From the NCBI GenBank assembly GCA_965248905.1, contig CBDFKS010000004.1, forward strand, positions 14,759-78,758: a stretch of 64,000 nucleotides of DNA, read 5' to 3'. This DNA comes from Dehalococcoidia bacterium. GTDB taxonomy: Bacteria; Chloroflexota; Dehalococcoidia; Lucifugimonadales; JAGWBF01. Below the pieces are notes generated by a model. It worked only from the letters and a program-made list of their open reading frames with translations, was not told the origin of the DNA and ran no database searches. Positions 8,388-49,286 of this stretch are shown one piece after another (the stretch's first letter is position 1; each line of letters starts with the position of its first letter). Both the position numbers and the translations under genes were made by a program.

Positions 8388-8573
8388 ACCATCCTCCTCA
8401 TAACGTGCGACAGAATATCGGTGCTAACACCTATATGTTCGAGATTACCCTTATTCTCTTTAAAACTAAACCTCGTGTCAAGACGAGCACACCAAGCCTA
8501 GGCCGTACCTACACTCTCGATGATCATGAGCCTAACCGCGTCTGAAACTCTTCACAGAGTGAGTCCATGCGGC

Positions 8574-8602
8574 TTGACACTGCTAGCGCATACTTTTACC
8601 AT
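8574..8602 (+). promoter_or_regulatory. Candidate sigma70-type promoter (TTGACA-17 nt-TACCAT) for the regulator gene
   Basis: TTGACA at 8574-8579, a 17-nt spacer, then TACCAT at 8597-8602. This would give a near-leaderless mRNA for the ATG at 8612. The call rests on sequence pattern only. Confidence 0.3.
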
Positions 8603-8611
8603 ATTATTAGC

Positions 8612-9256
8612 ATGCGTTCGAAGAATGAACAACAGAGCTCTATGGACGACTCCGCATATCGAGAGCTACGTCTGTTATCGGAAATCCAGCATACGTCCGA
8701 GGCAACCCAGCGAGACCTCTCACGAAGTCTGGGCATTGCCCTCGGGCTTACCAACGTACTGTTACGCAACCTCGCTCAAAAGGGGTACATACGCGTCACA
8801 CATGCCCGCTGGAAGCGTTGGTTGTACGCTCTAACGCCATCGGGATTTTCACGCAAGATTCAGCTCACAGTTTCCTACGTGCACCGAGTCCTTGACCACT
8901 ACCAGAACGTGCGCCAGACGCTGCGCGACGAGCTGGAGCCCCTTCACCTAAACGAGGAGTCTCGAATTGCCATTTATGGGACCGGTGAGTTCGCAGAGCT
9001 CGTCTATCTGGGAGTGAAAGAGTACGGGATAGAAGAGATAGACATCTTCGGGTCCATTAATCCTGGCAACGGAAAGTTCCTGGGCATGAGCATAAAGGAG
9101 ATCGAATCCCTTTCGCCCGAGAACTACGACAGAGTAATCATCGCCTCTTTGCAAGAAGTCCAAAACAAACGTGAGGATCTGGCCCTTCGGGGAGTCTATC
9201 AAGAAAACATCGTGACTTTTCTGCCGGAAGCTACAGGGGGTAATAATGGCTTTTGA
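8612..9256 (+). CDS. Winged-helix (MarR/EPS-associated-like) transcriptional regulator with a C-terminal Rossmann-like domain
   Basis: The wHTH segment is SEATQRDLSRSLGIALGLTNVLLRNLAQKGYIRV. The C-terminal part contains IAIYGTGEFAELVYLG. The start is ambiguous: 8567 (ORF track), 8612 or 8642. Confidence 0.75.
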   Translation: MRSKNEQQSSMDDSAYRELRLLSEIQHTSEATQRDLSRSLGIALGLTNVLLRNLAQKGYIRVTHARWKRWLYALTPSGFSRKIQLTVSYVHRVLDHYQNVRQTLRDELEPLHLNEESRIAIYGTGEFAELVYLGVKEYGIEEIDIFGSINPGNGKFLGMSIKEIESLSPENYDRVIIASLQEVQNKREDLALRGVYQENIVTFLPEATGGNNGF

Positions 9257-10010: not shown

Positions 10011-10751
10011 ATGTCAGCTATCGTAGCCATACCTGCTCGGTTGAAATCAACCAGGTTCCCTCGCAAGGTCCTTGCAGACATCAATGGCAAACCCATGCTC
10101 TGGCACGTCTGCCAGGGCGTGGCCAAAGCGGAGCAGGTCTCGGCGGTGTGGGTGCTCACCGACAGCTCAGAGGTATATGAGGCGGCTTCGTCCTGGGGCA
10201 TGAAGGCCATGATGACCGCCGAGGAATGTCCATCGGGAACGGCTCGCATAGCCTCGGTGATAGATGTCATAGATGCCGACATAGTGGTCAACGTACAGGC
10301 AGATGAGCCTCTTATCTCGGGTAGTGTAGTTGATGGTGTGGTAGCCGCGCTGGAGGATTCCGATGCCGTGGTGGCCACGCCGGTATATTCCATCAACAAC
10401 ATCGCAGATGTTACGAGTCCCAATGTGGTGAAAGTGGCCCGGGCCTCCGATGGGCGAGCGCTCTACTTCTCCCGCAGTCCGATACCGTACGTAAGGGACT
10501 TCGAGGTAAAGGACTGGCTTGATCAGGCCCCATATTGGGGCCATGTCGGGGTATATGCTTACCGGCGGCAAGTCTTGATTGATTATCTCCACCTACCCGA
10601 GGGCCAGATGGAACGGGCCGAGAAATTGGAGCAGCTTCGCCTCTTGGAAGCAGGACGAGACATACTTACGGTGGAGATCGATTACAGGCCTCACGGAGTG
10701 GACGTGCCTTCGGACCTAGACCTGGTGAAGGGGCTGCTCCAGTCTTCCTGA
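10011..10751 (+). CDS. kdsB: 3-deoxy-manno-octulosonate cytidylyltransferase (CMP-Kdo synthetase)
   Basis: IVAIPARLKSTRFPRKVLADINGKPML, VVNVQADEPLI, ALYFSRSPIPY and EQLRLLEAG align along the whole length with E. coli KdsB. Confidence 0.93.
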   Translation: MSAIVAIPARLKSTRFPRKVLADINGKPMLWHVCQGVAKAEQVSAVWVLTDSSEVYEAASSWGMKAMMTAEECPSGTARIASVIDVIDADIVVNVQADEPLISGSVVDGVVAALEDSDAVVATPVYSINNIADVTSPNVVKVARASDGRALYFSRSPIPYVRDFEVKDWLDQAPYWGHVGVYAYRRQVLIDYLHLPEGQMERAEKLEQLRLLEAGRDILTVEIDYRPHGVDVPSDLDLVKGLLQSS

Positions 10752-10781
10752 ATACATTTGGTCTCCACCTGAAAGCAAAAC

Positions 10782-11663
10782 ATGACAGTCAACGGAGATA
10801 AATCATGGGATAACGCTCTAGAGCCATTTGGGCCGCTGGAGCGAGTGGTAGAGGTAGGCCCATTGCGTATCGGCGATGGCTCCCTGGCCCTTATCGCCGG
10901 CCCATGCGCCATCGAGTCCGAGAACCTTTGTCTCTCCGTAGCCGAGCATCTAGCCTCCATTTGTGCAGAGCTAGGCATACCGTACGTTTTCAAAGCCTCC
11001 TTCGACAAAGCAAATCGCACCTCTCTGAACTCCTTCCGAGGACACGGATTAAACAACGGTGTATCCGTTCTCGCCAAGGTAAAGGAGCAGATTGGAGTTC
11101 CGGTGCTGACAGACGTACATGAGACTGAACAGGTCCAGCCGCTAGCAGATGTGGTGGACATTCTGCAGATACCAGCCTTCCTCAGCCGCCAGACGGACTT
11201 GCTGGTGGAGTGTGGCAGATTGGGACGGGCTGTGAATATCAAAAAGGGCCAGTTTCTACCGCCTGAGGACATGCAATACTCCGCCGAGAAGGTGGCCAAC
11301 TCCGGAACGAAAAACATCCTTCTGACGGAGCGGGGAGCCTTATTCGGATATAGAGATTTGGTAGTGGACATGAGGGGCCTGGTGATCATGAGGTCACTGG
11401 GATACCCGGTAGTGTTCGACGCCACCCACAGCGTACAGCAAATGGGCGGTAGGGGAGGCTCGTCAGGTGGCAGGCCTCATTTCATTCCAGCCCAGATTAG
11501 AGCAGCAGCGGCAGTGGGAATCGATGCCCTATTTATCGAGACTCACCCAGACCCTGACAGCGCCTTGTCCGATGGAGCAACCATGGTACCCTTGGCAAAC
11601 ATCAGGGCTGTGTTAGAGATGGCTTTAGCCATACATTCTACCCACCAAAGGCGCCTGAGCTGA
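10782..11663 (+). CDS. kdsA: 3-deoxy-8-phosphooctulonate (Kdo8P) synthase
   Basis: GIPYVFKASFDKANRTS..SFRG, DVVDILQIPAFLSRQTDL, VVFDATHSVQ and LFIETHPDP are canonical KdsA blocks. Confidence 0.95.
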   Translation: MTVNGDKSWDNALEPFGPLERVVEVGPLRIGDGSLALIAGPCAIESENLCLSVAEHLASICAELGIPYVFKASFDKANRTSLNSFRGHGLNNGVSVLAKVKEQIGVPVLTDVHETEQVQPLADVVDILQIPAFLSRQTDLLVECGRLGRAVNIKKGQFLPPEDMQYSAEKVANSGTKNILLTERGALFGYRDLVVDMRGLVIMRSLGYPVVFDATHSVQQMGGRGGSSGGRPHFIPAQIRAAAAVGIDALFIETHPDPDSALSDGATMVPLANIRAVLEMALAIHSTHQRRLS

Positions 11664-12223
11664 CCACAGGACACGACCGGTCGGAGGCTCGAGAGCTTGC
11701 GAAAGGGTTACAAGTACTCCTTCTGGATGTCGATGGAGTCTTGACCGATGGAGGGATCATACTGTTCGGCACAGAAGGAGAAGCCAAACGTTTCGATGTG
11801 CAGGACGGGATGGGAATCAACCTAGCCAGGGCAGCCGGGCTCAAGGTGGGAATCATCACCTCTAGGACCTCCGATGTCGTACAGCGTCGCGCCGAAGAGT
11901 TGAGCATCGATGAGCTTTTTCAGGGTACCAAACGCAAGGTAGACGCCCTCGACGTCGTTCTCGATAAATATCACATCGAAGCATCCCAAGCAGGCTATAT
12001 AGGCGATGACCTTCAGGACATTCCGATTATGGAACGAGTGGGAATCCCCATCGCGGTCCAAAACGCCGCCGAGCCTGTAAAGGCATGCAGCATGTATGTG
12101 ACCATGGCAGGTGGCGGGCATGGCGCGGTGCGTGAAGCCATCGAATGGCTCCTGGAGCTCCGGGGCGACAGGGATAAGGCATACAAGTCTATTACACACC
12201 GCACCCAATGGACTAGCTCGTAG
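11660..12223 (+). CDS. kdsC: Kdo8P phosphatase (HAD-IIIA); 5' end uncertain, possible CTG start
   Basis: LLLDVDGVLTDG (nucleophile DxD), GIITSR, KRKVDAL and YIGDDLQDIPIM are present. The first canonical start (TTG at 11741) lies after the DVDG motif. The frame is open upstream, and CTG at 11660 overlaps the kdsA stop. Confidence 0.8.
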   Translation: MTTGHDRSEARELAKGLQVLLLDVDGVLTDGGIILFGTEGEAKRFDVQDGMGINLARAAGLKVGIITSRTSDVVQRRAEELSIDELFQGTKRKVDALDVVLDKYHIEASQAGYIGDDLQDIPIMERVGIPIAVQNAAEPVKACSMYVTMAGGGHGAVREAIEWLLELRGDRDKAYKSITHRTQWTSS

Positions 12224-12277: not shown

Positions 12278-13252
12278 ATGGCATTGGACATTAAAGACAA
12301 GACTTTCTTGATAACTGGAGGTACAGGCTCATTCGGCCAAAAATGTACCGAACTTCTTCTCAAGGAAGGCCCTCCCCGGCGACTGGTTATATTTAGCCGG
12401 GACGAGCTAAAGCAGTACGAGATGGAGAAGCGATTCAATCATCCATCCCTACGCTTCTTCATCGGCGACGTCAGGGATAAGGATAGGCTGTATCGGGCTA
12501 TGAACGGCGTGGATTACGTCATCCACGCTGCAGCTTTAAAACAGGTACCAGCCTGCGAGTACAACCCTTTTGAGGCGGTGAAGACCAACATCCTTGGCGC
12601 TGTAAATGTGATAGACGCCTCTATTGATAACCAGGTGGAAAAAGTAATTGCCATCAGCACCGACAAGGCCGTGAACCCGGTTAACCTGTATGGCGCAACC
12701 AAACTGTGCGCTGAAAAACTCTTCGTACAGGGCAACGCATACTCGGGGGGTCGAGCCCGGTTCTCTTGTGCCCGATATGGGAACGTGGTCGGCAGCCGAG
12801 GAAGTGTAATCCCCCTGTTTTTGCAGCAAAAATCTACTGGGAAGGTAACCGTTACGGACAAGCGTATGACTCGTTTCTGGATTACCTTGGAACAGGGCGT
12901 CAGGTTCGTTCTCAGCTGCCTGGAGACCATGGTTGGCGGCGAGATTTTCGTGCCCAAGATCCCGAGCATGAATATCATGGACCTGGTTTCGGCTATTGTG
13001 CCCGAATGTGAAGTAAACTTAACCGGCATACGGCCAGGAGAGAAGATCCACGAGCTACTTATGTCCCCCGACGAGGCACGCCAAGCGTTAGAACGCCCTG
13101 ATATGTACATCATTCAGCCTGCTCACTCATGGTGGCAGATACAGGACTCCGACGGAAGTACCCCTGTACCCGATGAGTTTATCTACAGCAGTGACAACAA
13201 CCCCCATTGGCTCACGGTTGAAGAGATTCAAGGAATGGCTGCGTCCATATGA
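12278..13252 (+). CDS. pseB: UDP-GlcNAc 4,6-dehydratase (inverting), PseB/FlaA1 type
   Basis: LITGGTGSFG, SRDELKQYEM, FFIGDVRD, HAAALKQVP..EYNP, STDKAVNPVNLYGATKL, RYGNVVGSRGSV, RMTRFWIT and GEIFVPKIPS are near-collinear with Helicobacter FlaA1. Confidence 0.9.
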   Translation: MALDIKDKTFLITGGTGSFGQKCTELLLKEGPPRRLVIFSRDELKQYEMEKRFNHPSLRFFIGDVRDKDRLYRAMNGVDYVIHAAALKQVPACEYNPFEAVKTNILGAVNVIDASIDNQVEKVIAISTDKAVNPVNLYGATKLCAEKLFVQGNAYSGGRARFSCARYGNVVGSRGSVIPLFLQQKSTGKVTVTDKRMTRFWITLEQGVRFVLSCLETMVGGEIFVPKIPSMNIMDLVSAIVPECEVNLTGIRPGEKIHELLMSPDEARQALERPDMYIIQPAHSWWQIQDSDGSTPVPDEFIYSSDNNPHWLTVEEIQGMAASI

Positions 13253-13334: not shown

Positions 13335-14180
13335 ATGGAAGAGATCAGCGTTAAAGAACTGTCCCGATACACGCCTTGGGTTGCGAGGTTGGCTGGCGTC
13401 GAGCCCTTCTCAAAGCCGACGAGGAACATCCAGAAAATAGATGCGGAATACGACAAGGATAAGTATGCCGAGCTCTTGAAGTACTTCAAACACAATCCCG
13501 ATGCCGAGCCGAGACAGGTCAAGATCTACGAGTCGGGCAACGGCGCCGATACCGAGGTGTGCATTTCCAAAGGCGGGAAACTGTTATTAACCTCCCATCT
13601 CGAAGCACAGTGCCTGGAAGAAGAGACCCTTGTCAACTGCATAGGAGATGTTATCGGCCAGGCTCCTGTTGTAATCGAGTTAGGGTGTGGATACGGTTAC
13701 AATCTCTTCACACTATCGAAGGCCTATCCCGGCCGTAACTGGATAGGCGGAGAGTACTCCCACAACGCGGTAATTCTTTCTGAGCTCCTATACTCCGATT
13801 GCTCCAACATCAAAATACAGCCATTTAACTGGTATGACGACACCTGGGACATTTTCGAGTCATTGGAGTCAGAAGCTGTCGTATTTACCAGGCATTCCAT
13901 CGAACAGTTGCCCCAGGCGAAATCTGCTCTGCAGACGATGGCCAAATATAAAGCACAGATCAAAAGAGTAGTTCATCTAGAACCCATATATGAACTGTTC
14001 ACACAGCAATCCTCCACACTGGCACAGATGCGGCAGGCTTATATTCTCATGAATGACTATAATACGGACCTCCTGGCCACCCTAACGAACATGAACGTAA
14101 AGATTGAATTGATTCAGGATGACCTGATCGGCGGCAACCCCCTGAATCCTACCTGCGTCGTTCAGTGGACTTTCAGCTGA
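13335..14180 (+). CDS. Class I SAM-dependent methyltransferase
   Basis: Motif I is VVIELGCGYGYNLFTL. The start is set to ATG 13335, after the pseB stop. The ORF-track start at 13173 overlaps pseB. Confidence 0.7.
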   Translation: MEEISVKELSRYTPWVARLAGVEPFSKPTRNIQKIDAEYDKDKYAELLKYFKHNPDAEPRQVKIYESGNGADTEVCISKGGKLLLTSHLEAQCLEEETLVNCIGDVIGQAPVVIELGCGYGYNLFTLSKAYPGRNWIGGEYSHNAVILSELLYSDCSNIKIQPFNWYDDTWDIFESLESEAVVFTRHSIEQLPQAKSALQTMAKYKAQIKRVVHLEPIYELFTQQSSTLAQMRQAYILMNDYNTDLLATLTNMNVKIELIQDDLIGGNPLNPTCVVQWTFS

Positions 14181-15202
14181 ACAATCTGGAGGCAACCAGC
14201 TTCCTGGTCGTAGGCTGTGGATCGATAGGACGTCGTCACCTCCGTAACCTGAAGTCCCTGGGTATATCCAAATTAATGGCCTTAGATGTACAACCTGAGC
14301 GGGCCGAAGCGGTGGCGGAAGAGCTTGGCATATCGACATTTACGAGTTTGTCTCAAGCACTAGAATCATCGCCCGATGTGGTATTCATTAACACTTCAAC
14401 CAGCTTCCATGTGCCTTTGGCCTTGGACGCCGCCAACAACGGCTGCCACATTTTTATCGAAAAGCCCCTTTCGCACAACCTTGATGGCGTGGATGATCTG
14501 ATCGCCCTGGTACAAGCTAAGGAGCTGGTAACGTTGGTGGGTTGCAACATGCGCTTCCATCCGGGGCTAGCCTTAATCAAAAGACTCTTGGACGATGGAG
14601 CAGTTGGGAGGGTACTGGCTGCCAGGGTGCAGGTAGGGCAGTGGCTTCCCGACTGGCACCCCTGGGAGGACTATCGCCACGGTTACAGCGCTCGAAAGGA
14701 GCTGGGTGGCGGTGTCATCCTAGACGCCATCCACGAGCTGGACTACATAGGCTGGTTGCTGGGAGGCCCAGTGCATCAAGTTGTATGCTTTGCCGGCAAC
14801 ACAAGCAGTTTAGAGATCGACACGGAAGACACCGCTGCCATCATGTTGCGCTTCGCCGACGGCGCCATAGGTGAAGTGCACATGGACTATGTGCAGAGGG
14901 CTTACAGCCGCTCCTGCCATATAATAGGCGATATGGGTACTATCCACTGGGACTACACTGATGGTCAGGTCAGGCTGTATTCGGCATCGGAAGAAAGCTG
15001 GCACACCTACTGTAATCCCACCGGATGGGAACCGAATCAGATGTACATCGACGAGATGTGTCATTTCTTACGCTGCCTTTCCGGAGAAGAGGAGCCGGTA
15101 TTGAACGTGACTGAGGGCAAACGAGTACTGGAGCTTGCCCTTGCGGCCAAGCAATCGGCGGATATCGGGGAGGTGGTTGCCATAGGGGAGAACCCTAAGT
15201 GA
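14165..15202 (+). CDS. Gfo/Idh/MocA-family NAD(P) oxidoreductase
   Basis: The N-terminal Rossmann segment is FLVVGCGSIGRRHLRNL. IEKPL and a C-terminal GFO_IDH_MocA_C-like region are also present. Confidence 0.85.
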   Translation: MDFQLNNLEATSFLVVGCGSIGRRHLRNLKSLGISKLMALDVQPERAEAVAEELGISTFTSLSQALESSPDVVFINTSTSFHVPLALDAANNGCHIFIEKPLSHNLDGVDDLIALVQAKELVTLVGCNMRFHPGLALIKRLLDDGAVGRVLAARVQVGQWLPDWHPWEDYRHGYSARKELGGGVILDAIHELDYIGWLLGGPVHQVVCFAGNTSSLEIDTEDTAAIMLRFADGAIGEVHMDYVQRAYSRSCHIIGDMGTIHWDYTDGQVRLYSASEESWHTYCNPTGWEPNQMYIDEMCHFLRCLSGEEEPVLNVTEGKRVLELALAAKQSADIGEVVAIGENPK

Positions 15203-17253: not shown

Positions 17254-17272
17254 CCTTGAGGAGTTGGTGTTT

Positions 17273-38112: not shown

Positions 38113-38115
38113 GTA

Positions 38116-41606: not shown

Positions 41607-42700
41607 CAGAGGCCCAGACAAGCGTTGTCTCAACGGTAAGGGAAAGTACCGCCTCAGATAAGACCGGAATATTCAAACTTCGAGAGGCGGTCTATGGCAA
41701 GCCCTTCGGCCAGGAGGAGTGGCACTGGAAATTCGAGAAACACTCCGGCATTCCAGCTAAAATCTATGTGGCAGAGGCTCAAGACTCGCTCGTGGGTCTC
41801 AGGGCCTTCATCGTCGAGAGACTGAAAGTTCATGAGAAGGTGTGGCTGGCTGGCCTCGGCGTGGACATCATGGTCCATCCTGAGTTCAGGAGATACGGCA
41901 TCGCCTCCCAGGTCGCCAACGAAGCCTCCGAAGCCATGGAAGCGGCGGACATCCCCATATTGACCGGGTTCCCCAACGAAGCCGCGTTCAAGGTCTACAA
42001 TCGTAGGCGCTCCAACTGGAGGCACGTCTGCTCGATTCCTCTACTGGTAAAGCCATTAAACTTTGATGCCATCCTGGGTAAGTACGTCAAGAATTCCCTA
42101 CTCCGATGGTCATTAAGGGTACCGCTACAGGTTCTGTGGAGAGTATTCTTCGGCGGAAAAACCCGTAAAGCCCAGGACATCACCGTGAAAAAGGGCGACG
42201 CCTTCGACGAGCGGTTTGACCAGCTATGGGAGTCGGTCAATAAGCAGCACGAAATTCTGCTGGTGCGAGACCGGGCCTTTCTTGATTGGCGATTCAAGGA
42301 GAATCCGGATGTAGCTTGCGTGGTTTGCACGGCCGAACGAGATGGCAAACTACTGGGCTATGCCGTTCTGTGGGAAGGCCAGATGTTCGATCTCAAAGTG
42401 GGGTTTATACTCGATATTCTAGCGGAAGACGCGAATGCGACCGATGCCCTGATATCCGATGCCGTCGACTATTTCAAGGGGAGGGGTGTGGAGGCTGCAG
42501 GATGTCTGATGCTTAAACACACGTCATACTTCAAGGAGCTGAGAAGGGCCGGGTTTGTTGTGGCACCAAAACGGGCTATCCATAAAGAGTTCTACTTTGG
42601 AGTTCAGGTGAAGCCGTCCATCATCCCCGACGAAGTTATGAACAAACGCGAAAGCTGGTATTTGACCTTTGCCGACCTGGACCGGGAGCTGCCTATATGA
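41603..42700 (+). CDS. GNAT-family N-acetyltransferase (two-lobed, about 365 aa)
   Basis: The acetyl-CoA-binding-like block is VHPEFRRYGIASQVANEA. The GTG start overlaps the upstream stop (GTGA). Confidence 0.75.
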   Translation: MTEAQTSVVSTVRESTASDKTGIFKLREAVYGKPFGQEEWHWKFEKHSGIPAKIYVAEAQDSLVGLRAFIVERLKVHEKVWLAGLGVDIMVHPEFRRYGIASQVANEASEAMEAADIPILTGFPNEAAFKVYNRRRSNWRHVCSIPLLVKPLNFDAILGKYVKNSLLRWSLRVPLQVLWRVFFGGKTRKAQDITVKKGDAFDERFDQLWESVNKQHEILLVRDRAFLDWRFKENPDVACVVCTAERDGKLLGYAVLWEGQMFDLKVGFILDILAEDANATDALISDAVDYFKGRGVEAAGCLMLKHTSYFKELRRAGFVVAPKRAIHKEFYFGVQVKPSIIPDEVMNKRESWYLTFADLDRELPI

Positions 42701-43517
42701 CCTCGCTGATGGTCGTCGGCTGGTACCCCCAGGACAATACCGTGTCCAGAAAGCGGCGTAGCAGCTCGATGTTCTGTATTCCAATGGAGCGCCGGTGCCT
42801 GCTGGGTAGAGCGGCCGGGAGCTCTTGCTGGTCAGGAGCAACAAACTCCCAGGGATGGCAATAGAAGTTCAGCATGTATCCCCGGTTGAATACCCGCCTG
42901 GCTGCCCACAAGGTCAAGGTGGGCCCCAGAAGTCTTAGCGCGGTCATGCTGACAGGGAATACGAAGGAGGAGGGCGGTACCTCCAGGATGGGGCTCGAGC
43001 CCTGCTTTCCCAGGCTATGAGGGTCTGGATGGTAGGGCCGGAGAGGTGACAGGAAGTAGCCCAGGTTGTTGACCATGCCCAAACCGGCGTCGAAGCGGCG
43101 AACGGGCACAGAAGAATCTACGCGATAGTTCATCTCTTCCAGGACTTTTAACATGGTGTCACTGACCTGCAAAAATGGAGCCCTGAACACCGATGGCCTG
43201 GCATGGATGACCTTCTCAATGGCTTCAGTCCCTCGTTCGAGCCATTCCCGTTGCTTCTCGTAAGGAGTCGTGGCAAAGTTTTCCTCGAAATCCAGCACGT
43301 GAGCCCAGCCGTGGGCTCCAATCTCATGTCCGGCGTCGGCAGCCTCAGCGATGAGGCTCGGATAGGCGTTTACGAACTGGCCAGCCACAAATATCGTTGA
43401 GCGGGCGTTGTACTCGTCACAGAGCTTGAGCACCGCCTCCAGTCCAGGCGCCGATCGAGGTACCCAATCGCCATCAACGGTCAATAGGAGCTTGTTCTGC
43501 TGCGAGGGTTTTTCCAA
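42693..43517 (-). CDS. Polysaccharide deacetylase (CE4 / NodB-homology) family protein
   Basis: LLLTVDGDW corresponds to the Asp motif and GAHGWAH is H-x4-H. It is the only minus-strand gene inside the island. Confidence 0.8.
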   Translation of the reverse strand: MEKPSQQNKLLLTVDGDWVPRSAPGLEAVLKLCDEYNARSTIFVAGQFVNAYPSLIAEAADAGHEIGAHGWAHVLDFEENFATTPYEKQREWLERGTEAIEKVIHARPSVFRAPFLQVSDTMLKVLEEMNYRVDSSVPVRRFDAGLGMVNNLGYFLSPLRPYHPDPHSLGKQGSSPILEVPPSSFVFPVSMTALRLLGPTLTLWAARRVFNRGYMLNFYCHPWEFVAPDQQELPAALPSRHRRSIGIQNIELLRRFLDTVLSWGYQPTTISEVI

Positions 43518-43617
43518 TCTTCCACATCCATACTTGGAATAACGGGGCTAACGGTAGCATAGGGTGTGGCATAATTCAAGCATGGCCATTATCTAGCCGG
43601 ATGTCTCCCAACTCGAA

Positions 43618-45816
43618 ATGAAGCAAGTATCACAAAACTATAAGACCGGAGAGCTGAGCCTCACCGAAGTGCCTGTAGGTATGGCCAGAAGGGGCCAATT
43701 GCTCGTCCAGACGGCAGCGTCACTGGTCAGCGCCGGCACCGAAAAATCCATGATCGAGCTGGCCCGCAAGTCCCTGATAGGAAAGGCGCTGGCCCGGCCC
43801 GACCTGGTGCGCCAGGTCATCGCCAAGGCCCAGTCCGACGGCATTCTGGAGGCCTGGAAGCAGGCCATGGGGCGGCTGGATACACCGATGCCCCTGGGAT
43901 ACTCCTCAGCTGGAGTGGTTATCGATGTGGGGGCAGGCGTAGAGGGTTTCACCTCGGGAGACCGCGTCGCTTGCACCGGCCAGGGCTACGCCGGGCACTC
44001 CGAAGTTGTTTCGGTCCCTGCCAACCTGTGCGTTAAGATTCCGGATGCAGTTGGAGTTGAGGCAGCAGCCTTCGTGGCTCTGGGAGGTATAGCCCTCGAA
44101 GCAGTCCGCATGGCGCGAATATCGCTGGGTGAGACAGTGGCTGTAATAGGTCTCGGGCTTCTGGGACAGATCGCGGTGCAGGTGGCTAAAGCCGCCGGTT
44201 GCCATGTCATCGGCATGGACATCGACCCCCAGAAGAGCCAGATGGCTGATCAGCGCGGTGCGGAAGCGGTCGCAACCAGCTATGACCAACTGGCCACCCT
44301 TTGCCGCCAAACGACCAACGGCTCCGGAGCCGATGCGGTCCTCATCCTGGCTACGGCCACGAGTAACGAACCCCTGGAGCAAGCCGCCGAGCTATGCCGA
44401 GAGAGGGGCCGGGTAGTAATCACCGGTCAGGTCGGCCTAGACGTCCCTAGAAAGCCCTTCTATGACAAGGAGCTGGAGCTAGTGGTCTCCCGCGCCTGGG
44501 GCCCGGGAATCTACGACTCCAACTACGCCGAGAAGGGTCTGGACTATCCCATCGGATATGCCAGGTGGACGGCAAATCGAAACATGGAAGAGTTCCTGAA
44601 GTTACTGGACCAAGGAGCGGTGCAGGTAGACGATCTCATTACCCATCGCTTTCCCCTTGAGCGTGCCAAAGAAGCATATCAGCTCATCCTGGAAGGAGAG
44701 GAGCCTTATATTGGCGTCCTGCTGACCTATCCTGAAGGTGCCATTCAGAGCACCAGACCTCGAATGGTAGAATTGCCTGTCCATGTCCCCAGCTCCAAGC
44801 AGCAGGACCGGCATATCAGTATAGGGGTAATAGGAGCAGGGCTGTTCGCCAGAGCCACCTTGCTGCCCACCATAAAACAGGTAGGAGGCTTTCGCTTCAA
44901 GGGCGTGGCTACCGCAACCGGGCTTAGCGCCAAGCACATCGCCAACAAATACAGGTTCCAGTACTGCGTCACCGACCACAGCGAGGTATTAAACGATCCC
45001 GACATCGACCTAGTGCTAATCCTCACCCGCCATGGTTCCCACGCGGGTCTTATCTCCGAGGCCTTAAGGGCCCAAAAGCACGTTTTCGTGGAAAAGCCTC
45101 TCGCGTTGAATCCGGAACAGCTTCAACAGGTCATTCAAGCCTTCAACGATTCCGGCAATGACCAGGTTCGTAGGCCATCGCTCACCGTCGGCTTCAACCG
45201 TCGTTACTCTCCATTCGCCAAATGGATCAAGGAGCGCTTCAGCAACGTATCTGAGCCGCTGGCTGTGCACTGTACCGTCAATGCCGGCGCTCTCCCCCCT
45301 GACAACTGGACTTACGACCCGGAGGAGGGCGGAGGACGGATCATAGGTGAGGTCTGCCACTTCATAGACCTCGTCCAGTACTTTACCGGCTCTTTGCCGG
45401 TCCGCGTGTACGCCGAGTCTTTGGTATCCAATGGATACGCACCCAGCGACAACGTGACGGTCTCCGTCAAGATGGCCAATGGCGCCATCGGGTCTGTGAC
45501 CTACGTGGCGGGCGGAGATAAACGATTTCCAAGGGAGCGGGTGGAGGTGTTCGGCGGCGGAGCGGTTGGGGTCATAGACAACTTCAAGGCTGCCAGCTTC
45601 ACCCAGAAGGGACGCAGGCGTAGTCGCCGAAGCTGGCTAAGCGTCGACCGGGGCTATCATGGAGAGATCGATAGCCTGCGCTCAGCGATAAACCAGGACG
45701 GCTTTCGACAAGAGGCGTTCCAGGAACATGTCTACACCACCCTCGCAACCTTTGCCGCCGAGGAATCCCTGAAGCAGGGCAGGCCCATAGACGTAGATTG
45801 GCCAAGTCCACTGTGA
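43618..45816 (+). CDS. Bi-domain oxidoreductase: MDR/zinc-ADH-like (N) + Gfo/Idh/MocA (C)
   Basis: The N-terminal part is GYSSAGVV.., GETVAVIGLGLLG. The C-terminal part is ISIGVIGAGLFA and VEKPLAL. Confidence 0.85.
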   Translation: MKQVSQNYKTGELSLTEVPVGMARRGQLLVQTAASLVSAGTEKSMIELARKSLIGKALARPDLVRQVIAKAQSDGILEAWKQAMGRLDTPMPLGYSSAGVVIDVGAGVEGFTSGDRVACTGQGYAGHSEVVSVPANLCVKIPDAVGVEAAAFVALGGIALEAVRMARISLGETVAVIGLGLLGQIAVQVAKAAGCHVIGMDIDPQKSQMADQRGAEAVATSYDQLATLCRQTTNGSGADAVLILATATSNEPLEQAAELCRERGRVVITGQVGLDVPRKPFYDKELELVVSRAWGPGIYDSNYAEKGLDYPIGYARWTANRNMEEFLKLLDQGAVQVDDLITHRFPLERAKEAYQLILEGEEPYIGVLLTYPEGAIQSTRPRMVELPVHVPSSKQQDRHISIGVIGAGLFARATLLPTIKQVGGFRFKGVATATGLSAKHIANKYRFQYCVTDHSEVLNDPDIDLVLILTRHGSHAGLISEALRAQKHVFVEKPLALNPEQLQQVIQAFNDSGNDQVRRPSLTVGFNRRYSPFAKWIKERFSNVSEPLAVHCTVNAGALPPDNWTYDPEEGGGRIIGEVCHFIDLVQYFTGSLPVRVYAESLVSNGYAPSDNVTVSVKMANGAIGSVTYVAGGDKRFPRERVEVFGGGAVGVIDNFKAASFTQKGRRRSRRSWLSVDRGYHGEIDSLRSAINQDGFRQEAFQEHVYTTLATFAAEESLKQGRPIDVDWPSPL

Positions 45817-46841
45817 CCGATTATCGCCAACATTACCGTGATAAGACCGTGCTGGTCACGGGAGGTGCTGGGGCCATTGGTTCCAACCTGTGTAGCAATC
45901 TGGCCCAGCTCGGTGCGCGAATCATCTGTCTAGACGACCTTTCCGCCTCAATGTCATGGAATGTCCCTTCGTCCTCCTCCATCACCTTTGTCCAGGGGGA
46001 CATTCTGAACGAGACTACACTTAAAGAGGCCTTTTCAAAGCGTCCACAGATCGTATTCCACCTGGCAGCCTTCTTCGCTAATCAAAACTCTGTAGACCAC
46101 CCCGAGCGGGACCTGATGGTCAACGGCCTGGGCACTCTTCGTCTGCTGCAATGCTCGGTCGCAGCGGAGATAGAGCGGTTCGTCTACGCATCTTCCAGCT
46201 CGATTTATGGCGGTGAGGCGCCGTTGCCAATCAGGGAAGAGAGCATCTCAGTGAACTTGAGCACCCCTTATCAGATTACTAAACTCCTTGGCGAGCTGTA
46301 CTGCAATTACTATCACAGCCATTACGGTCTCAAAGTGGTCAAGCCCCGTCTCTTCAACTCTTACGGACCCGGAGAGCTTCCGGGACAGTATCGCAACGTA
46401 ATACCAAACTTCATATATCAAGCGATGAAGGGTGGTCCCTTGACCATCACAGGCACCGGAGAAGAGACCCGGGACTTCACCTACATCAACTATATAGTAG
46501 ATGGGCTTCTACGTTTGGGCTACTTTGAGGGGGCCGTCGGGCAAGAGATTAACCTGGGATCCGGCAAAGAGACCTCTATTAGAGAGCTGGCTGAGACAAT
46601 CAACACATTGACAAATAACAAGGCTGACCTCAAGTTCGTGGAACCCCGCCGGTGGGACACCAGAAGTCGCCGGCTGGCCGATATTGGGAGGGCTCGGACT
46701 CTTGCGGGCTACGACCCCACTATATCTCTCCACGAAGGGTTGAGCCTGACAGTCGCCTGGTTCCGGACGAATTGGGAGAGCATCATCGGGGCTGCTCGGT
46801 TCGAGCCAGAGACATCGATAGCCGCTCCGAAGCATGGATAA
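45798..46841 (+). CDS. NAD-dependent sugar-nucleotide epimerase/dehydratase (extended SDR)
   Basis: TVLVTGGAGAIGSNL and YQITKLLGE (YxxxK) are present. Confidence 0.88.
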   Translation: MAKSTVTDYRQHYRDKTVLVTGGAGAIGSNLCSNLAQLGARIICLDDLSASMSWNVPSSSSITFVQGDILNETTLKEAFSKRPQIVFHLAAFFANQNSVDHPERDLMVNGLGTLRLLQCSVAAEIERFVYASSSSIYGGEAPLPIREESISVNLSTPYQITKLLGELYCNYYHSHYGLKVVKPRLFNSYGPGELPGQYRNVIPNFIYQAMKGGPLTITGTGEETRDFTYINYIVDGLLRLGYFEGAVGQEINLGSGKETSIRELAETINTLTNNKADLKFVEPRRWDTRSRRLADIGRARTLAGYDPTISLHEGLSLTVAWFRTNWESIIGAARFEPETSIAAPKHG

Positions 46842-48150
46842 ACTCTGTGTCCAGGGTCTGGGCTACATCGGCCTGCCGACGGCAGCGATGTTCGCCAGTC
46901 ATGGATTACAGGTCTTGGGAGTAGATGTTAATCCTGCGGTGCTTAAGGTGCTCCAAAAGGGAGGTACTCACATTGAGGAACCGGGTATCTCCCAGTTGGT
47001 GGACACAGTCATTGGCTCAGGCCGATTAACCTTCAGCAGCCAGCCCGAAGCCGCCAACGCATTCATCATCTCCGTACCCACTCCCATCAACGCCGACAAA
47101 CGGGCCGATATGAGCTATGTAGAATCGGCCGCTCGAGCAACGATGACCTGCCTCCGTCCCGGCAATCTCGTTGTTCTGGAGTCCACTGTTCCACCGGGCA
47201 CAACACGAGACGTCGTGAAACCGATCCTTGAAGAGTCCGGCCTGAAAGCGGGATCGGATTTTTTGTTGGCTTACTCTCCTGAACGAGTCATGCCGGGCCG
47301 TATCCTGGACGAGATCGTAAATAACTCCCGGGTTGTCGGAGGCGTAGACGAGGCATCCGCCAAGGCTGCCCAAGCCCTATATGGGACCTTCGTAAAGGGC
47401 GACATTGTTTTGACCGACTGCTCAACCGCCGAAATGGTCAAGCTGATGGAGAACACCTCACGGGACGTGGCTATCGCATTGGCCAACGAATACGCCCGAC
47501 TGGCCGATGAGTTTGGTGTGGATGTGTGGGAGGCCATCGACATCGCCAACAAACATCCACGAGTAAGTATCTTGAGCCCAGGACCGGGGGTTGGCGGCCA
47601 CTGCATTAGCGTTGACCCCTGGTTCCTTGTGGAAGCCGCTCCCTACCTTACCCCGTTGATTCATCAGGCTAGACGAATCAACGACGAACAACCTGAATAT
47701 GTCGCCCGTATGGTTGAAGAAGCACTCTCTCGTCTGCACAATGACAGAGAATCACCCGCTCCTCCGTCGGATGCAATAATCGGGTGTCTCGGTCTCAGCT
47801 ATAAGGGAGACGTTGGGGATATCCGGGAAAGTCCAGCCATAGCGGTGGTTAAGGCTCTACGAAGTAGAGGGTACACGATAAAAGCCTTCGATCCATTTGT
47901 CGAATCTCTTCCCGAGATGGCTGACGTGGTTACCGGGTCCCTGGAAGAAGCTGTAGCCGGGACCGATTGCCTACTCCTGCTAGTCGACCATACGGCGTTT
48001 CAACAACTGGACATCGAACATTTGGCGTCCGTTGTGCGTCGGCGGCTGGTCATAGACACCCGAACGATGGCGGACCAGGACCGGTGGTCCGCTCATGGAT
48101 TTAAGGTGATACGCCTCGGTGATGGAAGACACAGAGATTTTGATCCATGA
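46834..48150 (+). CDS. wecC: UDP-N-acetyl-D-mannosamine dehydrogenase family (nucleotide-sugar dehydrogenase)
   Basis: LCVQGLGYIGLPTAAMFASHG..VLGVDVN, YSPERVMPG and GPGVGGHCISVDP (catalytic Cys) are present. Confidence 0.85.
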   Translation: MDKLCVQGLGYIGLPTAAMFASHGLQVLGVDVNPAVLKVLQKGGTHIEEPGISQLVDTVIGSGRLTFSSQPEAANAFIISVPTPINADKRADMSYVESAARATMTCLRPGNLVVLESTVPPGTTRDVVKPILEESGLKAGSDFLLAYSPERVMPGRILDEIVNNSRVVGGVDEASAKAAQALYGTFVKGDIVLTDCSTAEMVKLMENTSRDVAIALANEYARLADEFGVDVWEAIDIANKHPRVSILSPGPGVGGHCISVDPWFLVEAAPYLTPLIHQARRINDEQPEYVARMVEEALSRLHNDRESPAPPSDAIIGCLGLSYKGDVGDIRESPAIAVVKALRSRGYTIKAFDPFVESLPEMADVVTGSLEEAVAGTDCLLLLVDHTAFQQLDIEHLASVVRRRLVIDTRTMADQDRWSAHGFKVIRLGDGRHRDFDP

Positions 48151-49286
48151 TCAAGGTGCTCTCCGTTTTCGGCACACGCCCCGAGGCTATAAAGATGGCG
48201 CCAGTCATCAAAGAGCTGGAACGGCGGCGAGACAAATTTATTTCGGTGGTCTGCGTGACCGCTCAGCATCGCCAGATGTTGGACCAAGTGTTGGACATCT
48301 TCGGCATCACTGCAGACCACGACCTGGACATCATGAAGAGCGGTCAGGACCTCTTCCACATCACATCCCGGTCCCTGGAAGGACTCAAGCCGGTGCTGGA
48401 GGAGGAGAAGCCGGACATCGTTCTAGTCCAGGGCGATACCACCACCGTATTCATGGCCACACTTGCCGCCTATTATATGCGAATCCCCATAGGTCACGTG
48501 GAGGCGGGCCTCAGGACCCATGACAAGTATAGCCCCTTCCCCGAAGAGGTAAACCGTCGCCTGACGGACGTCCTGGCCGATTTCTGCTTCGCACCCACCG
48601 AGCACAACCGTGAGAACCTCCTCAGGGAAGGTGTCCAGGATGACCGTATCTTCGTGACCGGAAACACGGTCATCGACTCCCTCCAAGAGACCGTAGAAAC
48701 GTTGGGCTCCCTAGCCTCCGGTCCTTCCCTACCGCCCGAGCTCTCGTCCATACCAACCACCCAGAAGATTATCGCCGTTACGGCTCACCGCCGTGAGAGT
48801 TTCGGCCAGGAGATGGAGAATATCTGTTGGGGACTCCGAAAGCTGGTCGAGCGTAACGACGATCTGTGCATCGTATATCCCGTGCACATGAATCCCAACG
48901 TTCAGAAGCCTGTCCATCGCATCTTGGGCGACGTACCAGGCATCATACTTACTGAGCCATTGGAGTACGTTCCATTCGTATGGCTATTGAATCGTTGCCA
49001 CTTCACACTCACAGACTCGGGAGGCATACAAGAAGAGGCCCCAGCGCTGGGCAAGCCGGTGCTGGTCATGCGCAAAAAGACCGAACGCCCAGAAGGAGTG
49101 GAAGCTGGAGTTGCCCGCGTAATCGGGACAGACAGTGAGTCGATCTATGGGGAAGCACAGCGACTGCTGCATGACCCCGACGCCTATCAACAGATGGCCC
49201 AGGCCGTAAATCCCTACGGAGACGGCCATGCCTCTCGATACATAGTCGACATACTGGAGCAAAAGCTAGTAGTCAGTCGACTTTAA
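48147..49286 (+). CDS. wecB: UDP-N-acetylglucosamine 2-epimerase (non-hydrolysing)
   Basis: KVLSVFGTRPEAIKMAPV, VQGDTTT, HVEAGLRT and TDSGGIQEEAPALGKPVLVMR are present. Confidence 0.93.
   Translation: MIKVLSVFGTRPEAIKMAPVIKELERRRDKFISVVCVTAQHRQMLDQVLDIFGITADHDLDIMKSGQDLFHITSRSLEGLKPVLEEEKPDIVLVQGDTTTVFMATLAAYYMRIPIGHVEAGLRTHDKYSPFPEEVNRRLTDVLADFCFAPTEHNRENLLREGVQDDRIFVTGNTVIDSLQETVETLGSLASGPSLPPELSSIPTTQKIIAVTAHRRESFGQEMENICWGLRKLVERNDDLCIVYPVHMNPNVQKPVHRILGDVPGIILTEPLEYVPFVWLLNRCHFTLTDSGGIQEEAPALGKPVLVMRKKTERPEGVEAGVARVIGTDSESIYGEAQRLLHDPDAYQQMAQAVNPYGDGHASRYIVDILEQKLVVSRL

Follow-up and report, generated by a model that had tools for sequence, protein, structure and literature searches.

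A putative envelope-glycan locus in Dehalococcoidia, headed by an RfaH-like NusG paralog and a diverged ops-like leader element

Background

In Escherichia coli, RfaH and the ops element control lipopolysaccharide (LPS), O-antigen and group 2 capsule operons (reviewed in PMC7593976 and PMC7819879). RfaH is found in 23 of 117 phyla, and 95% of its members are proteobacterial (PMC7593976). The first two genes of Bacteroides capsule operons encode a locus-specific NusG paralog, UpxY, and its partner UpxZ, with opsX in the leader (PMC11685472). Monomorphic RfaH homologues, which are cis-encoded next to long operons, proved ops-independent in E. coli assays (PMC13015549). Here we describe a co-directional gene array of about 40 kb in a 64-kb stretch of DNA from a Dehalococcoidia bacterium (GCA_965248905.1, contig CBDFKS010000004.1); this stretch is called the window, and coordinates are window positions. 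The array is headed by a cis-encoded, RfaH-like NusG paralog, and a short ops-like element lies between the paralog gene and the first cargo gene. On balance we think it probable that the array is an envelope-glycan locus with a fixed chromosomal site and modular cargo, driven by the paralog and its ops-type element.

The kps cluster of E. coli K1 combines RfaH dependence, genes for CMP-activated 3-deoxy-D-manno-octulosonic acid (CMP-Kdo; kpsF, kpsU), a CMP-nonulosonate pathway (neu) and export by an ATP-binding cassette (ABC) transporter. LoaP, another specialised NusG paralog, probably acts through an RNA element. The presence of Kdo is commonly taken as a hallmark of LPS. Chloroflexota are considered to be monoderms that lack an LPS outer membrane (PMC10608941). 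As for the nonulosonates, the Sps enzymes of Bacillus subtilis make legionaminic acid (Leg) from UDP-sugars with proteins that resemble those for pseudaminic acid (Pse) (PMC7439481), and the O-antigen clusters of Legionella pneumophila Sg6 and Sg12 list an unfused trio, similar to genes described below, of PseG, a glutamate-1-semialdehyde (GSA)-aminomutase-like protein and a cytidylyltransferase (PMC3694923). Literature searches combining NusG paralog with Chloroflexi, or Dehalococcoidia with pseudaminic acid, found no papers, and a search for nonulosonic with Chloroflexi gave nothing relevant.

The regulatory head

Gene identities were assigned by Pfam and NCBIfam profile scans and judged against the curated NCBIfam cut-offs. 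The original prediction, made from the sequence alone, placed a winged helix-turn-helix (wHTH) regulator and a NusG/RfaH-family paralog with NGN and KOW domains at the head of the array, and both Pfam and structure alignment bear this out (Table 1). In brief, residues 4-94 of the paralog match the Pfam NusG NGN domain, and residues 104-160 align to the KOW domain of solved NusG structures. The best NCBIfam match is RfaH (TIGR01955), with 70.1 bits against a cut-off of 144.5. The scores for UpxY (NF033644) and LoaP (NF033641) are 37.8 bits against 100 and 37.6 against 125, respectively, and that for NusG is approximately 38.

The paralog was aligned to an E. coli RfaH sequence verified against structure 2OUG. 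It has kept W4, K10, H20, E48, F51, P52, G74 and R138, including the pair E48 and R138 that forms the salt bridge of the autoinhibited state of RfaH. Of the ops-contact set K10, H20, R23, Q24 and R73, the first two are kept and the other three are changed. An AlphaFold2 (AF2) model built from 16 sequences gave a confident NGN domain (pLDDT 70-90). Our reading is that the paralog is RfaH-like and cis-encoded, that it falls outside RfaH as defined by the curated model, and that its DNA signal may have diverged together with the contact residues.

The partner is a MarR-type regulator that weakly matches TIGR04176 (MarR_EPS; 64 bits, cut-off 88). Its homologues in loci L004, L092 and L093 (related loci are numbered with an L throughout) match PF22674 (C2185-like_N), and the PDB has a weak match with a shikimate dehydrogenase-like fold. 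A nucleotide or a nucleotide sugar may be bound by the Rossmann-like C-terminal half. We corrected the start of this gene from 8567 to 8612, and the resulting N-terminus, MRSKNEQQ, is kept in relatives. Within the close clade the wHTH gene is always paired with the paralog; more distant paralogs occur without it.

The promoter-like site in front of the head was the best-scoring site of a consensus promoter scan (10 of 12 matches). A -10-like hexamer 6-9 nt upstream of the wHTH ATG is also found in L006, L004 and L007, and a -35 TTGAC is common to the window and L006. This suggests that the transcript of the head is leaderless or nearly so.

An ops-like element in the leader

Relatives of the paralog were sought by scanning one genome per species with the paralog alignment. 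The 12 best loci all come from Dehalococcoidia metagenome-assembled genomes (MAGs; 65-39% identity) and are followed by other Chloroflexota. At approximately 30% identity the family includes Desulforudis and other Bacillota, Binatia, Nitrospirota and Marinobacter/Alcanivorax.

The paralog gene is followed by a 195-nt spacer that is unalignable among relatives except for one block, which is the ops-like element of Table 1. It is kept at 16-18 of its 19 positions in L006, L092 and L004 and is unique in the 64 kb. Each related locus has one such element; it lies downstream of the paralog gene, in every case on the plus strand, and approximately 50 nt before the first cargo start codon. A graded series leads from the window form through GGCGGAGCCTTACGCC in L093 and GGCGGAGCACTGCC in L007-9 to the canonical E. 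coli-type GGCGGTAGnnTG in more distant Chloroflexota. When compared with the 12-nt ops, the window sequence has diverged to GGGGGAACCCTACG, and the corresponding sequences in L093 and L007 are GGCGGAGCCTTACG and GGCGGAGCACTG. Canonical-type ops sequences follow the paralog in the distant Chloroflexota loci L015 and L026 (GGCGGTAGCATG), as well as in L023 (GGCGGTAGCCTG) and L077 (GGCGGTAGCTTG). A form without the T, GGCGGAGCnnTG, follows the paralog in other loci.

The pattern GGCGG(T)AGC occurs at most 400 nt downstream of the paralog stop codon in 45 of 80 related loci. The 46 matches in 30.9 kb correspond to 1.49 per kb against 0.071 per kb elsewhere, a 21-fold enrichment with approximately 2 matches expected. 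It should be noted that the pattern was partly derived from the same sequences; the canonical ops core was not, and distant members show that core. The proposal that a specialised NusG paralog heads a polysaccharide array thus gains comparative support from the conserved ops-like element and from the presence of the same head in seven lineages.

The T6-less form follows cis-encoded paralogs in Chloroflexota, Desulforudis, Pelotomaculum, Desulfotomaculum, other Bacillota and Binatia (loci L016-L018, L022, L024, L027, L028, L030, L034, L039, L040, L042, L046, L048, L050, L058, L065, L066 and L084). The gammaproteobacterial members (Marinobacter, Alcanivorax) carry GGCGGTAGCGTG.

An alternative that we regard as unlikely is that the element is not the loading site of the paralog. 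It could serve as operator for the MarR-type regulator, belong to an internal promoter or act as an RNA motif in the leader, and the paralog could act without a specific site, as a monomorphic cis-acting protein, or on RNA like LoaP. This would agree with the departure of the window element from ops at key positions and with the changed contact residues, as well as with the strict co-inheritance of the wHTH partner and the diverged element in the clade. In E. coli assays, monomorphic RfaH homologues located beside their targets did not depend on ops either (PMC13015549). However, intermediate forms connect the element without a break to canonical ops in relatives that have no wHTH partner, and both its strand (non-template) and its distance from the first gene (approximately 50 nt) are constant. 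The partial inverted repeats GTAGGG/CCCTAC that flank the element in the window, as might be expected on this alternative, are not kept in L006, L004 or L007, and an Rfam scan of the window at the gathering threshold found no known leader RNA family. We therefore prefer to read the element as a diverged ops-type loading site.

Fixed chromosomal site and modular cargo

The wHTH-paralog head of the window is shared with L001/L002 (97% identity), L092 and L094 (66%), L006 (65%), L093 (63%), L004 (56%) and L007-9 (54-56%). In five head lineages the upstream neighbours are the same, namely shikimate dehydrogenase (aroE), MmgE/PrpD, an FAD oxidoreductase and amidases. The array is therefore best described as a variable region at a fixed chromosomal site, and we rejected the possibility of a mobile genomic island on the same grounds. 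A tRNA scan of the 64-kb window found no tRNA gene that could mark an integration site.

The genes behind the head differ between lineages. In the window and L001, and in L006, L092 and L093, the head is followed by kdsBAC and then the Pse block. Only the Pse block follows in L004 and L094. Neither is found in the L007-9 clade, where the ABC exporter comes directly after the head and is accompanied by family 4 glycosyltransferases (GT4) and by a gene for an oxidoreductase with zinc alcohol dehydrogenase and Gfo/Idh/MocA domains (ADH-GFO). In L091, kdsBAC adjoins the Pse block with no head in view, and in the SAR202 locus L090 kdsBAC lies beside a radical SAM/SPASM gene, kpsF, a homologue of the 605-aa protein u605 described below and sulfation genes, with no Pse genes in view. 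Comparative genomics could have found the Kdo and Pse blocks never to be conserved together; instead, they adjoin each other in four of the head lineages and in one other locus. The two blocks recur together, but they are separable. In L004, a 45-aa KdsB remnant (10648-10785) follows the head at the place where the Kdo block was lost.

The original prediction of a single glycan containing both acids remains a conjecture, because the cargo is modular and relatives carry Pse without Kdo, or neither. It is possible, if somewhat unlikely, that two or more independent glycoconjugate pathways share the locus. A ManNAcA-type core polymer would then be the work of the ABC exporter, the two GT4 proteins, ADH-GFO and WecBC, and the Kdo and Pse/Leg cassettes would serve another acceptor, as in protein glycosylation. 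Such independence is consistent with the composition of L007-9, L004, L094 and L090, with the promoter-like element of the distal unit (see below) and with the genome of L004, in which the u605 module lies 340 kb from the head and is flanked by transposases. On the other hand, all cassettes in the window run in the same direction behind one head and share a single exporter. When the Kdo block is present in the clade it always adjoins the Pse block (window, L006, L092, L093 and L091), and variable sugar cassettes are generally known also from within single O-antigen and capsule loci. An envelope-glycan locus with modular cargo remains our preferred reading.

Array layout and transcription units

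According to the ORF listing and junction analysis, 35 of the 36 ORFs at 8567-49286 are on the plus strand, as expected for a co-directional array of about 40 kb interrupted by one minus-strand gene. Most genes are tightly packed; eight junctions are 4-nt overlaps and several others are overlaps of 8-19 nt or gaps of 0-13 nt, so the many short overlaps noted earlier were also recovered. The G+C content is 0.48-0.57 within the array and 0.56-0.60 in the flanks. Since the flanks encode ordinary metabolism (three tandem amidases upstream; a GDPD phosphodiesterase, a thiamine pyrophosphate enzyme, an aminotransferase and others downstream), the boundaries given for the array are right.

The amidase paralogs are encoded on the minus strand (3509-4918, 5083-6603 and 6662-8065) and preceded by a conserved 60-aa ORF (8205-8387). 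This set spans 3509-8387, runs divergently from the head of the glycan array and shows synteny in L001, L092, L093 and L094.

Several corrections were made to the gene map. The ORF listed from 13173 has its true start at 13335 and encodes 281 aa, with 73% identity to a 281-aa gene in L093. An apparent gap of 420 nt (25420-25841) is coding, and the ORF is split by a 68-nt tandem duplication (25742-25809 and 25810-25877). An exact 32-mer is present twice, 68 nt apart (25742 and 25810), and removal of one unit gives a continuous 667-aa ORF from 25536. The apparent gap of 305 nt at 37810-38116 is a methyltransferase gene that continues in another frame. These two gaps were considered as internal promoter regions and rejected, both being coding. 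After the corrections, the three largest plus-strand spacers are the 195-nt leader after the paralog gene, approximately 115 nt after the ABC gene and 100 nt after the minus-strand gene. There is thus no large non-coding gap after the leader in the region 8612-42700.

Behind the minus-strand deacetylase gene lies a distal unit of four genes. We expect at least two plus-strand units, because these last four genes follow both the deacetylase gene and a conserved promoter-like block; they probably have their own promoter. The very long transcription units proposed earlier therefore agree with the tight packing as far as 42700 and probably do not extend to the last four genes. The ADH-GFO gene of L007, L008 and L009 is preceded by a promoter-like block, GGCTACGGTATCATGGGTGCGCTCGACGG..CAACGGGTA, which in L007 (18620-18840) is tandemly duplicated. 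L007-9 also have a second ops-like sequence, GGCGGAGCG, 22 nt before the ADH-GFO start codon; the window has none at this position. A sequence before the distal unit that resembles ops, CGGTAGCAT, more probably represents a conserved -10 region (TAGCAT or TATCAT). Two G+C-rich hairpins (e.g. CTCTCCCC-ATTGAA-GGGGGAGAG) are found at 49340-49395, right after the last gene of the array. They have no T-tract and may form a non-canonical terminator.

The distal unit includes the genes predicted for synthesis of UDP-N-acetylmannosaminuronic acid (UDP-ManNAcA), as proposed earlier. WecB is well above its cut-off (TIGR00236; 509 bits against 210). The WecC-like protein passes the NDP-sugar dehydrogenase subfamily model (433 against 190) and is just below the cut-off of the WecC equivalog NF008286 (421 against 459).

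The CMP-Kdo route

A KpsF-type isomerase, KdsA, KdsC and KdsB are all present with scores above the curated cut-offs (Table 1), and the CMP-Kdo route is therefore complete, in agreement with the original prediction. KdsA homologues with at least 70% identity form at least 120 clusters, and the named neighbours are MAGs of Chloroflexi, Dehalococcoidia and SAR202.

Such frequent occurrence would be expected if the Kdo genes were housekeeping genes for an LPS core and the lineage were in fact diderm, an explanation that we find very improbable. The phylum is regarded as monoderm (PMC10608941), and Pfam and NCBIfam scans of the 64-kb window gave no match to WaaA, Lpx or Lpt. The block lies between the gene for the predicted antiterminator and those for the nonulosonate, and it is present or absent among close relatives, with only a 45-aa remnant in one of them, which fits poorly with an essential role. 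An accessory Kdo route within the glycan locus agrees better with this distribution.

In L090, from SAR202 strain AD-802-F09, genes for a sulfotransferase, a fused ATP sulfurylase/pyruvate-kinase-like protein and an adenosine 5'-phosphosulfate (APS) kinase (4190-9105) are located directly upstream of kdsB-kdsA-kdsC. This suggests that marine SAR202 make sulfated, Kdo-containing glycans.

A non-canonical nonulosonate route

The original prediction of a Pse-like route is overstated. PseB and PseG are above their cut-offs and a NeuB-family synthase is present; PseC and PseH are absent, the cytidylyltransferase domain is below the PseF cut-off and the synthase is nearer to SpsE. The closest solved structure to the synthase is B. 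subtilis SpsE (1vli; 1e-90), followed by PseI (8h2c; 4e-65). The protein belongs to the right superfamily with scores below the cut-offs for NeuB (361 against 400) and PseI (311.6 against 340.25). Pse or Leg stereochemistry is not callable here, because the synthase is nearest to SpsE and Sps enzymes make legionaminic acid.

The cytidylyltransferase is fused to a class-III aminotransferase. The N-terminal domain is of the right superfamily and below the cut-offs of KdsB and PseF (39.5 bits against 205.7 for PseF), and the C-terminal half resembles the GSA-aminomutase-like family PRK06209 (464 bits against 486). PDB relatives of the aminotransferase domain include sugar C-6' aminotransferases. 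The Gfo/Idh/MocA oxidoreductase (GFO) and the aminotransferase/cytidylyltransferase pair are kept with the Pse block in L004, L006, L091, L092, L093 and L094; the two enzymes of the pair are fused in most of these relatives and separate in L006. We propose that the cytidylyltransferase carries out CMP activation and that GFO and the aminotransferase tailor the sugar by oxidation and transamination.

PseC follows directly after PseB in every other relative examined. Relatives then have the 281-aa methyltransferase-like gene after PseC, and in L093 this gene lies between DegT and GFO. In L004, L091 and L093, the relatives whose fetched sequence passes the synthase, a PseH-type GNAT stands at the position of the formyltransferase. 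A pseudogenised PseC was sought in the window and none was found; the gene is simply absent, and no window protein has a DegT Pfam match. The class-III aminotransferase as a substitute for PseC is unsupported, as relatives carry both enzymes. Since the PseC-less layout is common to three independent assemblies (93-98% protein identity), we consider it a feature of the lineage.

The loss of PseC and PseH raises the question of whether the locus is decaying or partly non-functional in this genome, so that no ulosonate-containing glycan is made. We consider this quite unlikely. In its favour, the gene split by the 68-nt duplication is unbroken in a sequence of 99% identity, one methyltransferase gene is frameshifted, and the KdsB remnant in L004 indicates that decay does occur at the locus. 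All other ORFs are intact in the three assemblies, however, and the genes that are split differ between them (kdsA in L002/L003; the 281-aa gene and the formyltransferase gene in L001), as is typical of long-read indel errors. For the same reason a sequencing error is favoured over a pseudogene as the cause of the frameshift at 37229-38112. The 68-nt duplication could be a real mutation, either inactivating or reversible, or an assembly artefact. The formyltransferase is located exactly where relatives have PseH, which looks like replacement rather than loss. We thus favour a functional, non-canonical route over decay.

Transferases, decoration and export

The earlier count of six methyltransferases and a radical SAM enzyme in the cargo was recovered as six methyltransferase-like genes and one radical SAM/SPASM enzyme. 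Directly after the Pse block is a PFTS-motif protein. Its homologue in L088 carries PF27878, and it has no PDB relative by sequence; based on its position, we propose that it is an ulosonate transferase. One of the methyltransferase-like proteins (21835-22545) most resembles CmoA, a carboxy-S-adenosylmethionine synthase, a possible sign that the glycan is carboxymethylated rather than methylated.

Of all array proteins, the fused ABC exporter is the only integral membrane protein according to a hydropathy scan. Its NCBIfam matches to HepA, MsbA and PglK are all below cut-off. The 667-aa product encoded next is rare, with 76 matches among 1.84 billion representatives. Its best homologue, P0250, has 669 aa and is aligned from residue 81, and P0254, which is 99% identical, is intact across the junction of the duplication.

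The 605-aa protein u605 has 106 homologues, shares contigs with KdsA in at least 8 cases and follows a KpsF-type gene in L088 and L090. The AF2 model is of high confidence (pLDDT 92, pTM 0.91). Foldseek on this model retrieved generic GT-B folds only (GT1/GT4, NeuC and the TagF-like Cps3D), with WaaA at rank 36, and thus singled out no specific ulosonate transferase. The C-terminus weakly resembles the TagF-like protein. From position and fold, we propose that u605 may be an ulosonate transferase, with Kdo or another ulosonate as the presumed donor sugar. Locus L086 lies on the same 2.0-Mb contig as L004, 340 kb away, and consists of a HAD, CTP_transf_3, u605, RmlD-like and GT2 module between rve-family transposases.

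The distant locus L088 has the same gene order as the window: PFTS, ABC, TagF-like (Glyphos_transf), radical SAM/SPASM, methyltransferase, unassigned genes, KpsF-type (SIS/CBS) and u605. In L088 this order continues with MurJ-like, Bac_transf, PglD and DegT genes, which points to assembly on a polyprenyl carrier. Both GT4 genes of the window are kept in L007-9 (59-66% identity). The 346-aa protein downstream of them has Asp-box motifs as usually seen in sialidase-like beta-propellers. It would not be expected in an ulosonic-acid cluster, and it has no evident signal peptide. In the array, Pfam found no KpsMT ABC-2, KpsC/KpsS or KpsD/KpsE and no Capsule_synth, Poly_export or Wzz matches.

Proposed mechanism and significance

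Based on these observations, we suggest the following. A promoter just before 8612 would drive the two-gene head encoding the MarR-type regulator and the cis-encoded, RfaH-like paralog. RNA polymerase would then run into the 195-nt spacer and meet, approximately 50 nt before kdsB, the diverged ops-type element on the non-template strand. The paralog would load on the polymerase at this element and confer resistance to pausing and termination, so that approximately 33 kb of packed genes up to 42700 could be traversed; the short distal unit would be driven by its own promoter. The products would be CMP-Kdo, UDP-ManNAcA, methyl, acetyl and other decorations and a CMP-activated nonulosonate of the 5,7-diamino type. 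The latter would belong to the Pse/Leg family, be made by a non-canonical route without PseC and PseH, and probably be aminated and formylated by the products of the GFO, class-III aminotransferase and formyltransferase genes. Six GT-B/GT-A-type transferases would build a lipid-linked oligo- or polysaccharide in the cytoplasm, and the single MsbA/PglK-type ABC transporter would deliver it to an envelope without LPS. The sequences themselves show the gene identities, the synteny and the conserved element with its family-wide enrichment; the remaining steps, among them antitermination, the extent of the operon, the make-up of the glycan and its acceptor, are inferred.

Several points weigh against this proposal. 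On the regulatory side, the window element departs from ops at positions that are important in E. coli (C3->G, G8->A, no T6), and the paralog is far below the curated cut-offs of RfaH, UpxY and LoaP. It has lost the ops-contact residues R23, Q24 and R73 (changed to F, A and P) and also the HTTT motif, and the AF2 model gives its C-terminal domain low confidence (pLDDT 30-55) and shows short helices there instead of a barrel. Scans for consensus promoters and terminators along the island gave no more matches than expected from shuffled sequence, so the operon calls do not rely on them. On the biosynthetic side, no recognised Kdo transferase (WaaA/GT30, KpsC/KpsS or WbbB-type) was found by Pfam or NCBIfam in any island protein, and that this genome lacks LPS is an assumption based on its phylum (PMC10608941). 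PseC/DegT and a PseH-type GNAT are absent from the 64 kb (tblastn with the L006 and L004 proteins gave a best E value of 0.9), so the nonulosonate pathway may be incomplete, or the missing or broken genes may be long-read assembly errors. Pfam, NCBIfam and hydropathy scans found no priming phosphoglycosyltransferase, Wzx-type flippase, Wzy polymerase, ligase or oligosaccharyltransferase in the array. Finally, one array gene is split by a duplication and another is frameshifted.

Considered jointly, the loci may represent an undescribed clade of cis-encoded RfaH-type antiterminators that extends from Gammaproteobacteria to Chloroflexota, Bacillota, Nitrospirota and Binatia, each with its own ops variant, such as the T6-less GGCGGAGCnnTG and the further diverged form of Dehalococcoidia. 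In Dehalococcoidia and SAR202 these proteins would control operons of 30-40 kb, through which monoderms would build a non-LPS envelope glycan containing Kdo and a nonulosonate of the Pse/Leg type. Its synthesis would involve unclassified ulosonate transferases (the PFTS and TIGR04326-like GT-B families) and a new oxidise/transaminate/formylate module fused to a CMP-transferase. We offer this wider view tentatively and with some doubt.

As judged from sequence, three features of the locus are of particular interest. There is a predicted pair of RfaH-type protein and signal in Dehalococcoidia, belonging to a broad and little-described cis-encoded family. A full and apparently accessory Kdo route is unexpected in a phylum regarded as lacking LPS. 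The putative nonulosonate route is non-canonical, with uncharacterised tailoring and transferase candidates. RfaH has mostly been studied in enterobacteria, and cis-encoded relatives beside graded ops variants in several phyla are a natural data set for co-evolution of paralog and signal. The combination of paralog and ops variant also gives a sequence rule for locating target operons in uncultured bacteria. Dehalococcoidia and SAR202 are abundant bacteria of the subsurface and the ocean, here with Kdo and nonulosonate routes side by side, and the predicted acidic, heavily methylated envelope glycan could affect phage recognition, adhesion to particles and the ulosonic-acid pool of sea and soil. 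The locus further points to candidate new transferase families and to an uncharacterised amination module, both of which are biochemically testable.

Table 1. Features of the array in the window, and leader blocks of related loci.
Feature	Position	Strand	Remarks
Promoter-like site TTGACA-17-TACCAT	8574-8602	+	Predicted; ends 9 nt before wHTH start codon
MarR-type winged-helix regulator, 214 aa	8612-9256	+	Pfam HTH_24/MarR_2; Rossmann-like C-terminal half
RfaH-like NusG paralog, 189 aa	9246-9815	+	NGN + KOW; overlaps wHTH gene by 11 nt
ops-like leader element GGGGGAACCCTACGCCAAA	9962-9980	+ (non-template strand)	19 nt; 49 nt before first cargo start codon
Leader block, L006 and L092			GGGGGAGCCCTACGCCAAA
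Leader block, L004			GGGGGAGCCCTATCCTAAA
Leader block, L094			GGGGGATCCTTACGCCAAA
Leader block, L093			GGCGGAGCCTTACGCCAAA
Leader block, L007/8			GGCGGAGCACTGCCCAAGA
KdsB	10011-10751	+	NF003952, 290 bits (cut-off 193)
KdsA	10782-11663	+	NF003543, 391 bits (cut-off 242)
KdsC	11741-12223	+	TIGR01670, 134 bits (cut-off 107)
PseB-type UDP-GlcNAc 4,6-dehydratase	12278-13252	+	TIGR03589, 490 bits (cut-off 408)
Conserved class-I methyltransferase-like protein, 281 aa	13335-14180	+	Weak Methyltransf_4 match; motif VIELGCGYG
Gfo/Idh/MocA oxidoreductase	14165-15202	+	Pfam
CTP_transf_3 cytidylyltransferase + class-III aminotransferase fusion, 684 aa	15199-17253	+	Pfam
NeuB/PseI/SpsE-family nonulosonic acid synthase	17264-18331	+	Pfam NeuB + SAF
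Short formyltransferase-like protein, 174 aa	18332-18856	+	Formyl_trans_N; NVHP...D motif
PseG-type UDP-sugar hydrolase	18853-19881	+	TIGR03590, 178.5 bits (cut-off 153.6)
PFTS-motif polysaccharide biosynthesis protein, candidate nonulosonate transferase	19931-21838	+	TIGR04417, 158 bits (cut-off 100)
CmoA-like methyltransferase	21835-22545	+	CmoA, 121 bits (cut-off 193)
NanM-like putative sugar O-methyltransferase	22577-23647	+	TIGR04371, 103 bits (cut-off 44)
ABC exporter of MsbA/PglK/HepA type, fused transmembrane and nucleotide-binding domains	23651-25420	+	Pfam ABC_membrane + ABC_tran
Gene without assigned function, 667 aa when repaired	25536-27610	+	Split by 68-nt duplication
TagF-like GT-B protein	27661-28746	+	
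Radical SAM/SPASM enzyme	28839-29999	+	
Methyltransferase	30006-30848	+	
Protein without assignment, 293 aa	30803-31684	+	
Methyltransferase	31708-32484	+	
KpsF/GutQ-type arabinose-5-phosphate isomerase	32481-33449	+	TIGR00393, 279.6 bits (cut-off 203.7)
u605, 605-aa GT-B-fold protein, candidate transferase for Kdo or other ulosonate	33446-35263	+	TIGR04326-like, 77 bits (cut-off 250)
RmlD-like reductase, GT2, then the genes in the next five rows	35273-42700	+	Listed from 5'
Frameshifted methyltransferase	37229-38112	+	Second frame after ~37800 (..GHVREYTKDEL..)
GT4	38116-39288	+	
WcaI-like GT4	39301-40569	+	
Protein of 346 aa	40566-41606	+	Two Asp-box (BNR) motifs, STDQGRTW and SPDGTSW; no family match
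GNAT protein, 365 aa	41603-42700	+	
Polysaccharide deacetylase	42693-43517	-	Sole minus-strand gene; Pfam Polysacc_deac_1
Promoter-like element TTGGAA ... GGCTAACGGTAGCATAGGGTG	43534-43566	+	Predicted; aligns with GGCTACGGTATCATGGGTG upstream of ADH-GFO gene in L007-9
Distal unit: ADH_zinc + GFO bi-domain oxidoreductase, short-chain dehydrogenase/reductase (SDR) epimerase/dehydratase, WecC-like UDP-ManNAc dehydrogenase, WecB 2-epimerase	43618-49286	+	

Comparison with known systems

The original prediction that no characterised cluster has this architecture is true in detail, but E. coli K1 kps already brings together the elements named in the Background, and a NusG paralog with a partner regulator also begins the Bacteroides capsular polysaccharide operons (PMC11685472). 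As in the E. coli RfaH/ops system, a long polysaccharide operon is paired with a specialised NusG paralog and has a short element on the non-template strand of its leader, and K10, H20, E48 and R138 of RfaH are kept. Unlike RfaH, the paralog is cis-encoded as the second gene of the array, has a MarR-type partner and scores below the RfaH cut-off; unlike ops, the element is diverged and without T6. The host here also belongs to a phylum regarded as monoderm.

The locus shares with K1 kps the CMP-Kdo genes, a CMP-nonulosonate pathway and export by an ABC transporter. It differs in that the exporter is of the fused MsbA/PglK type and not KpsMT, in that KpsC, KpsS, KpsD and KpsE are lacking, and in that kdsA and kdsC are included.

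The canonical CMP-Pse and Sps pathways have in common with the present route a PseB dehydratase, a PseG hydrolase, a NeuB-family synthase, a CTP_transf_3 cytidylyltransferase and a UDP-linked precursor, and the synthase is closest to SpsE as in B. subtilis Sps. In contrast to canonical Pse (PseB, C, H, G, I, F) and Sps, the window has no PseC/SpsC aminotransferase and no PseH/SpsD acetyltransferase. Additional here are the Gfo/Idh/MocA oxidoreductase, the class-III aminotransferase fused to the cytidylyltransferase, the formyltransferase and the methyltransferase-like gene.

Like the monomorphic RfaH homologues (PMC13015549) and LoaP of Firmicutes, the paralog is encoded beside the long operon that it is thought to activate, and its C-terminal domain is not predicted as a confident alpha-hairpin, as far as the low-confidence AF2 model goes. 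It is unlike LoaP in its score (38 bits against 125) and in the conservation of an ops-type DNA motif.

Bacteroides UpxY recognises the paused polymerase through an ops-type leader sequence. In the UpxY/UpxZ systems, as here, a paralog and a partner regulator come first, the leader has an ops-type sequence and the cargo varies between loci. The order is reversed here, with the partner first, and the partner consists of a wHTH and a Rossmann-like domain and is not UpxZ. The regulator genes here precede the ops-like site, whereas in Bacteroides they follow it, and the UpxY model gives 38 bits against 100. Unlike in Bacteroides, a single locus is seen here and there is no evidence of invertible promoters. 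With these differences, UpxY/UpxZ with opsX is the closest architectural precedent for the Dehalococcoidia locus.

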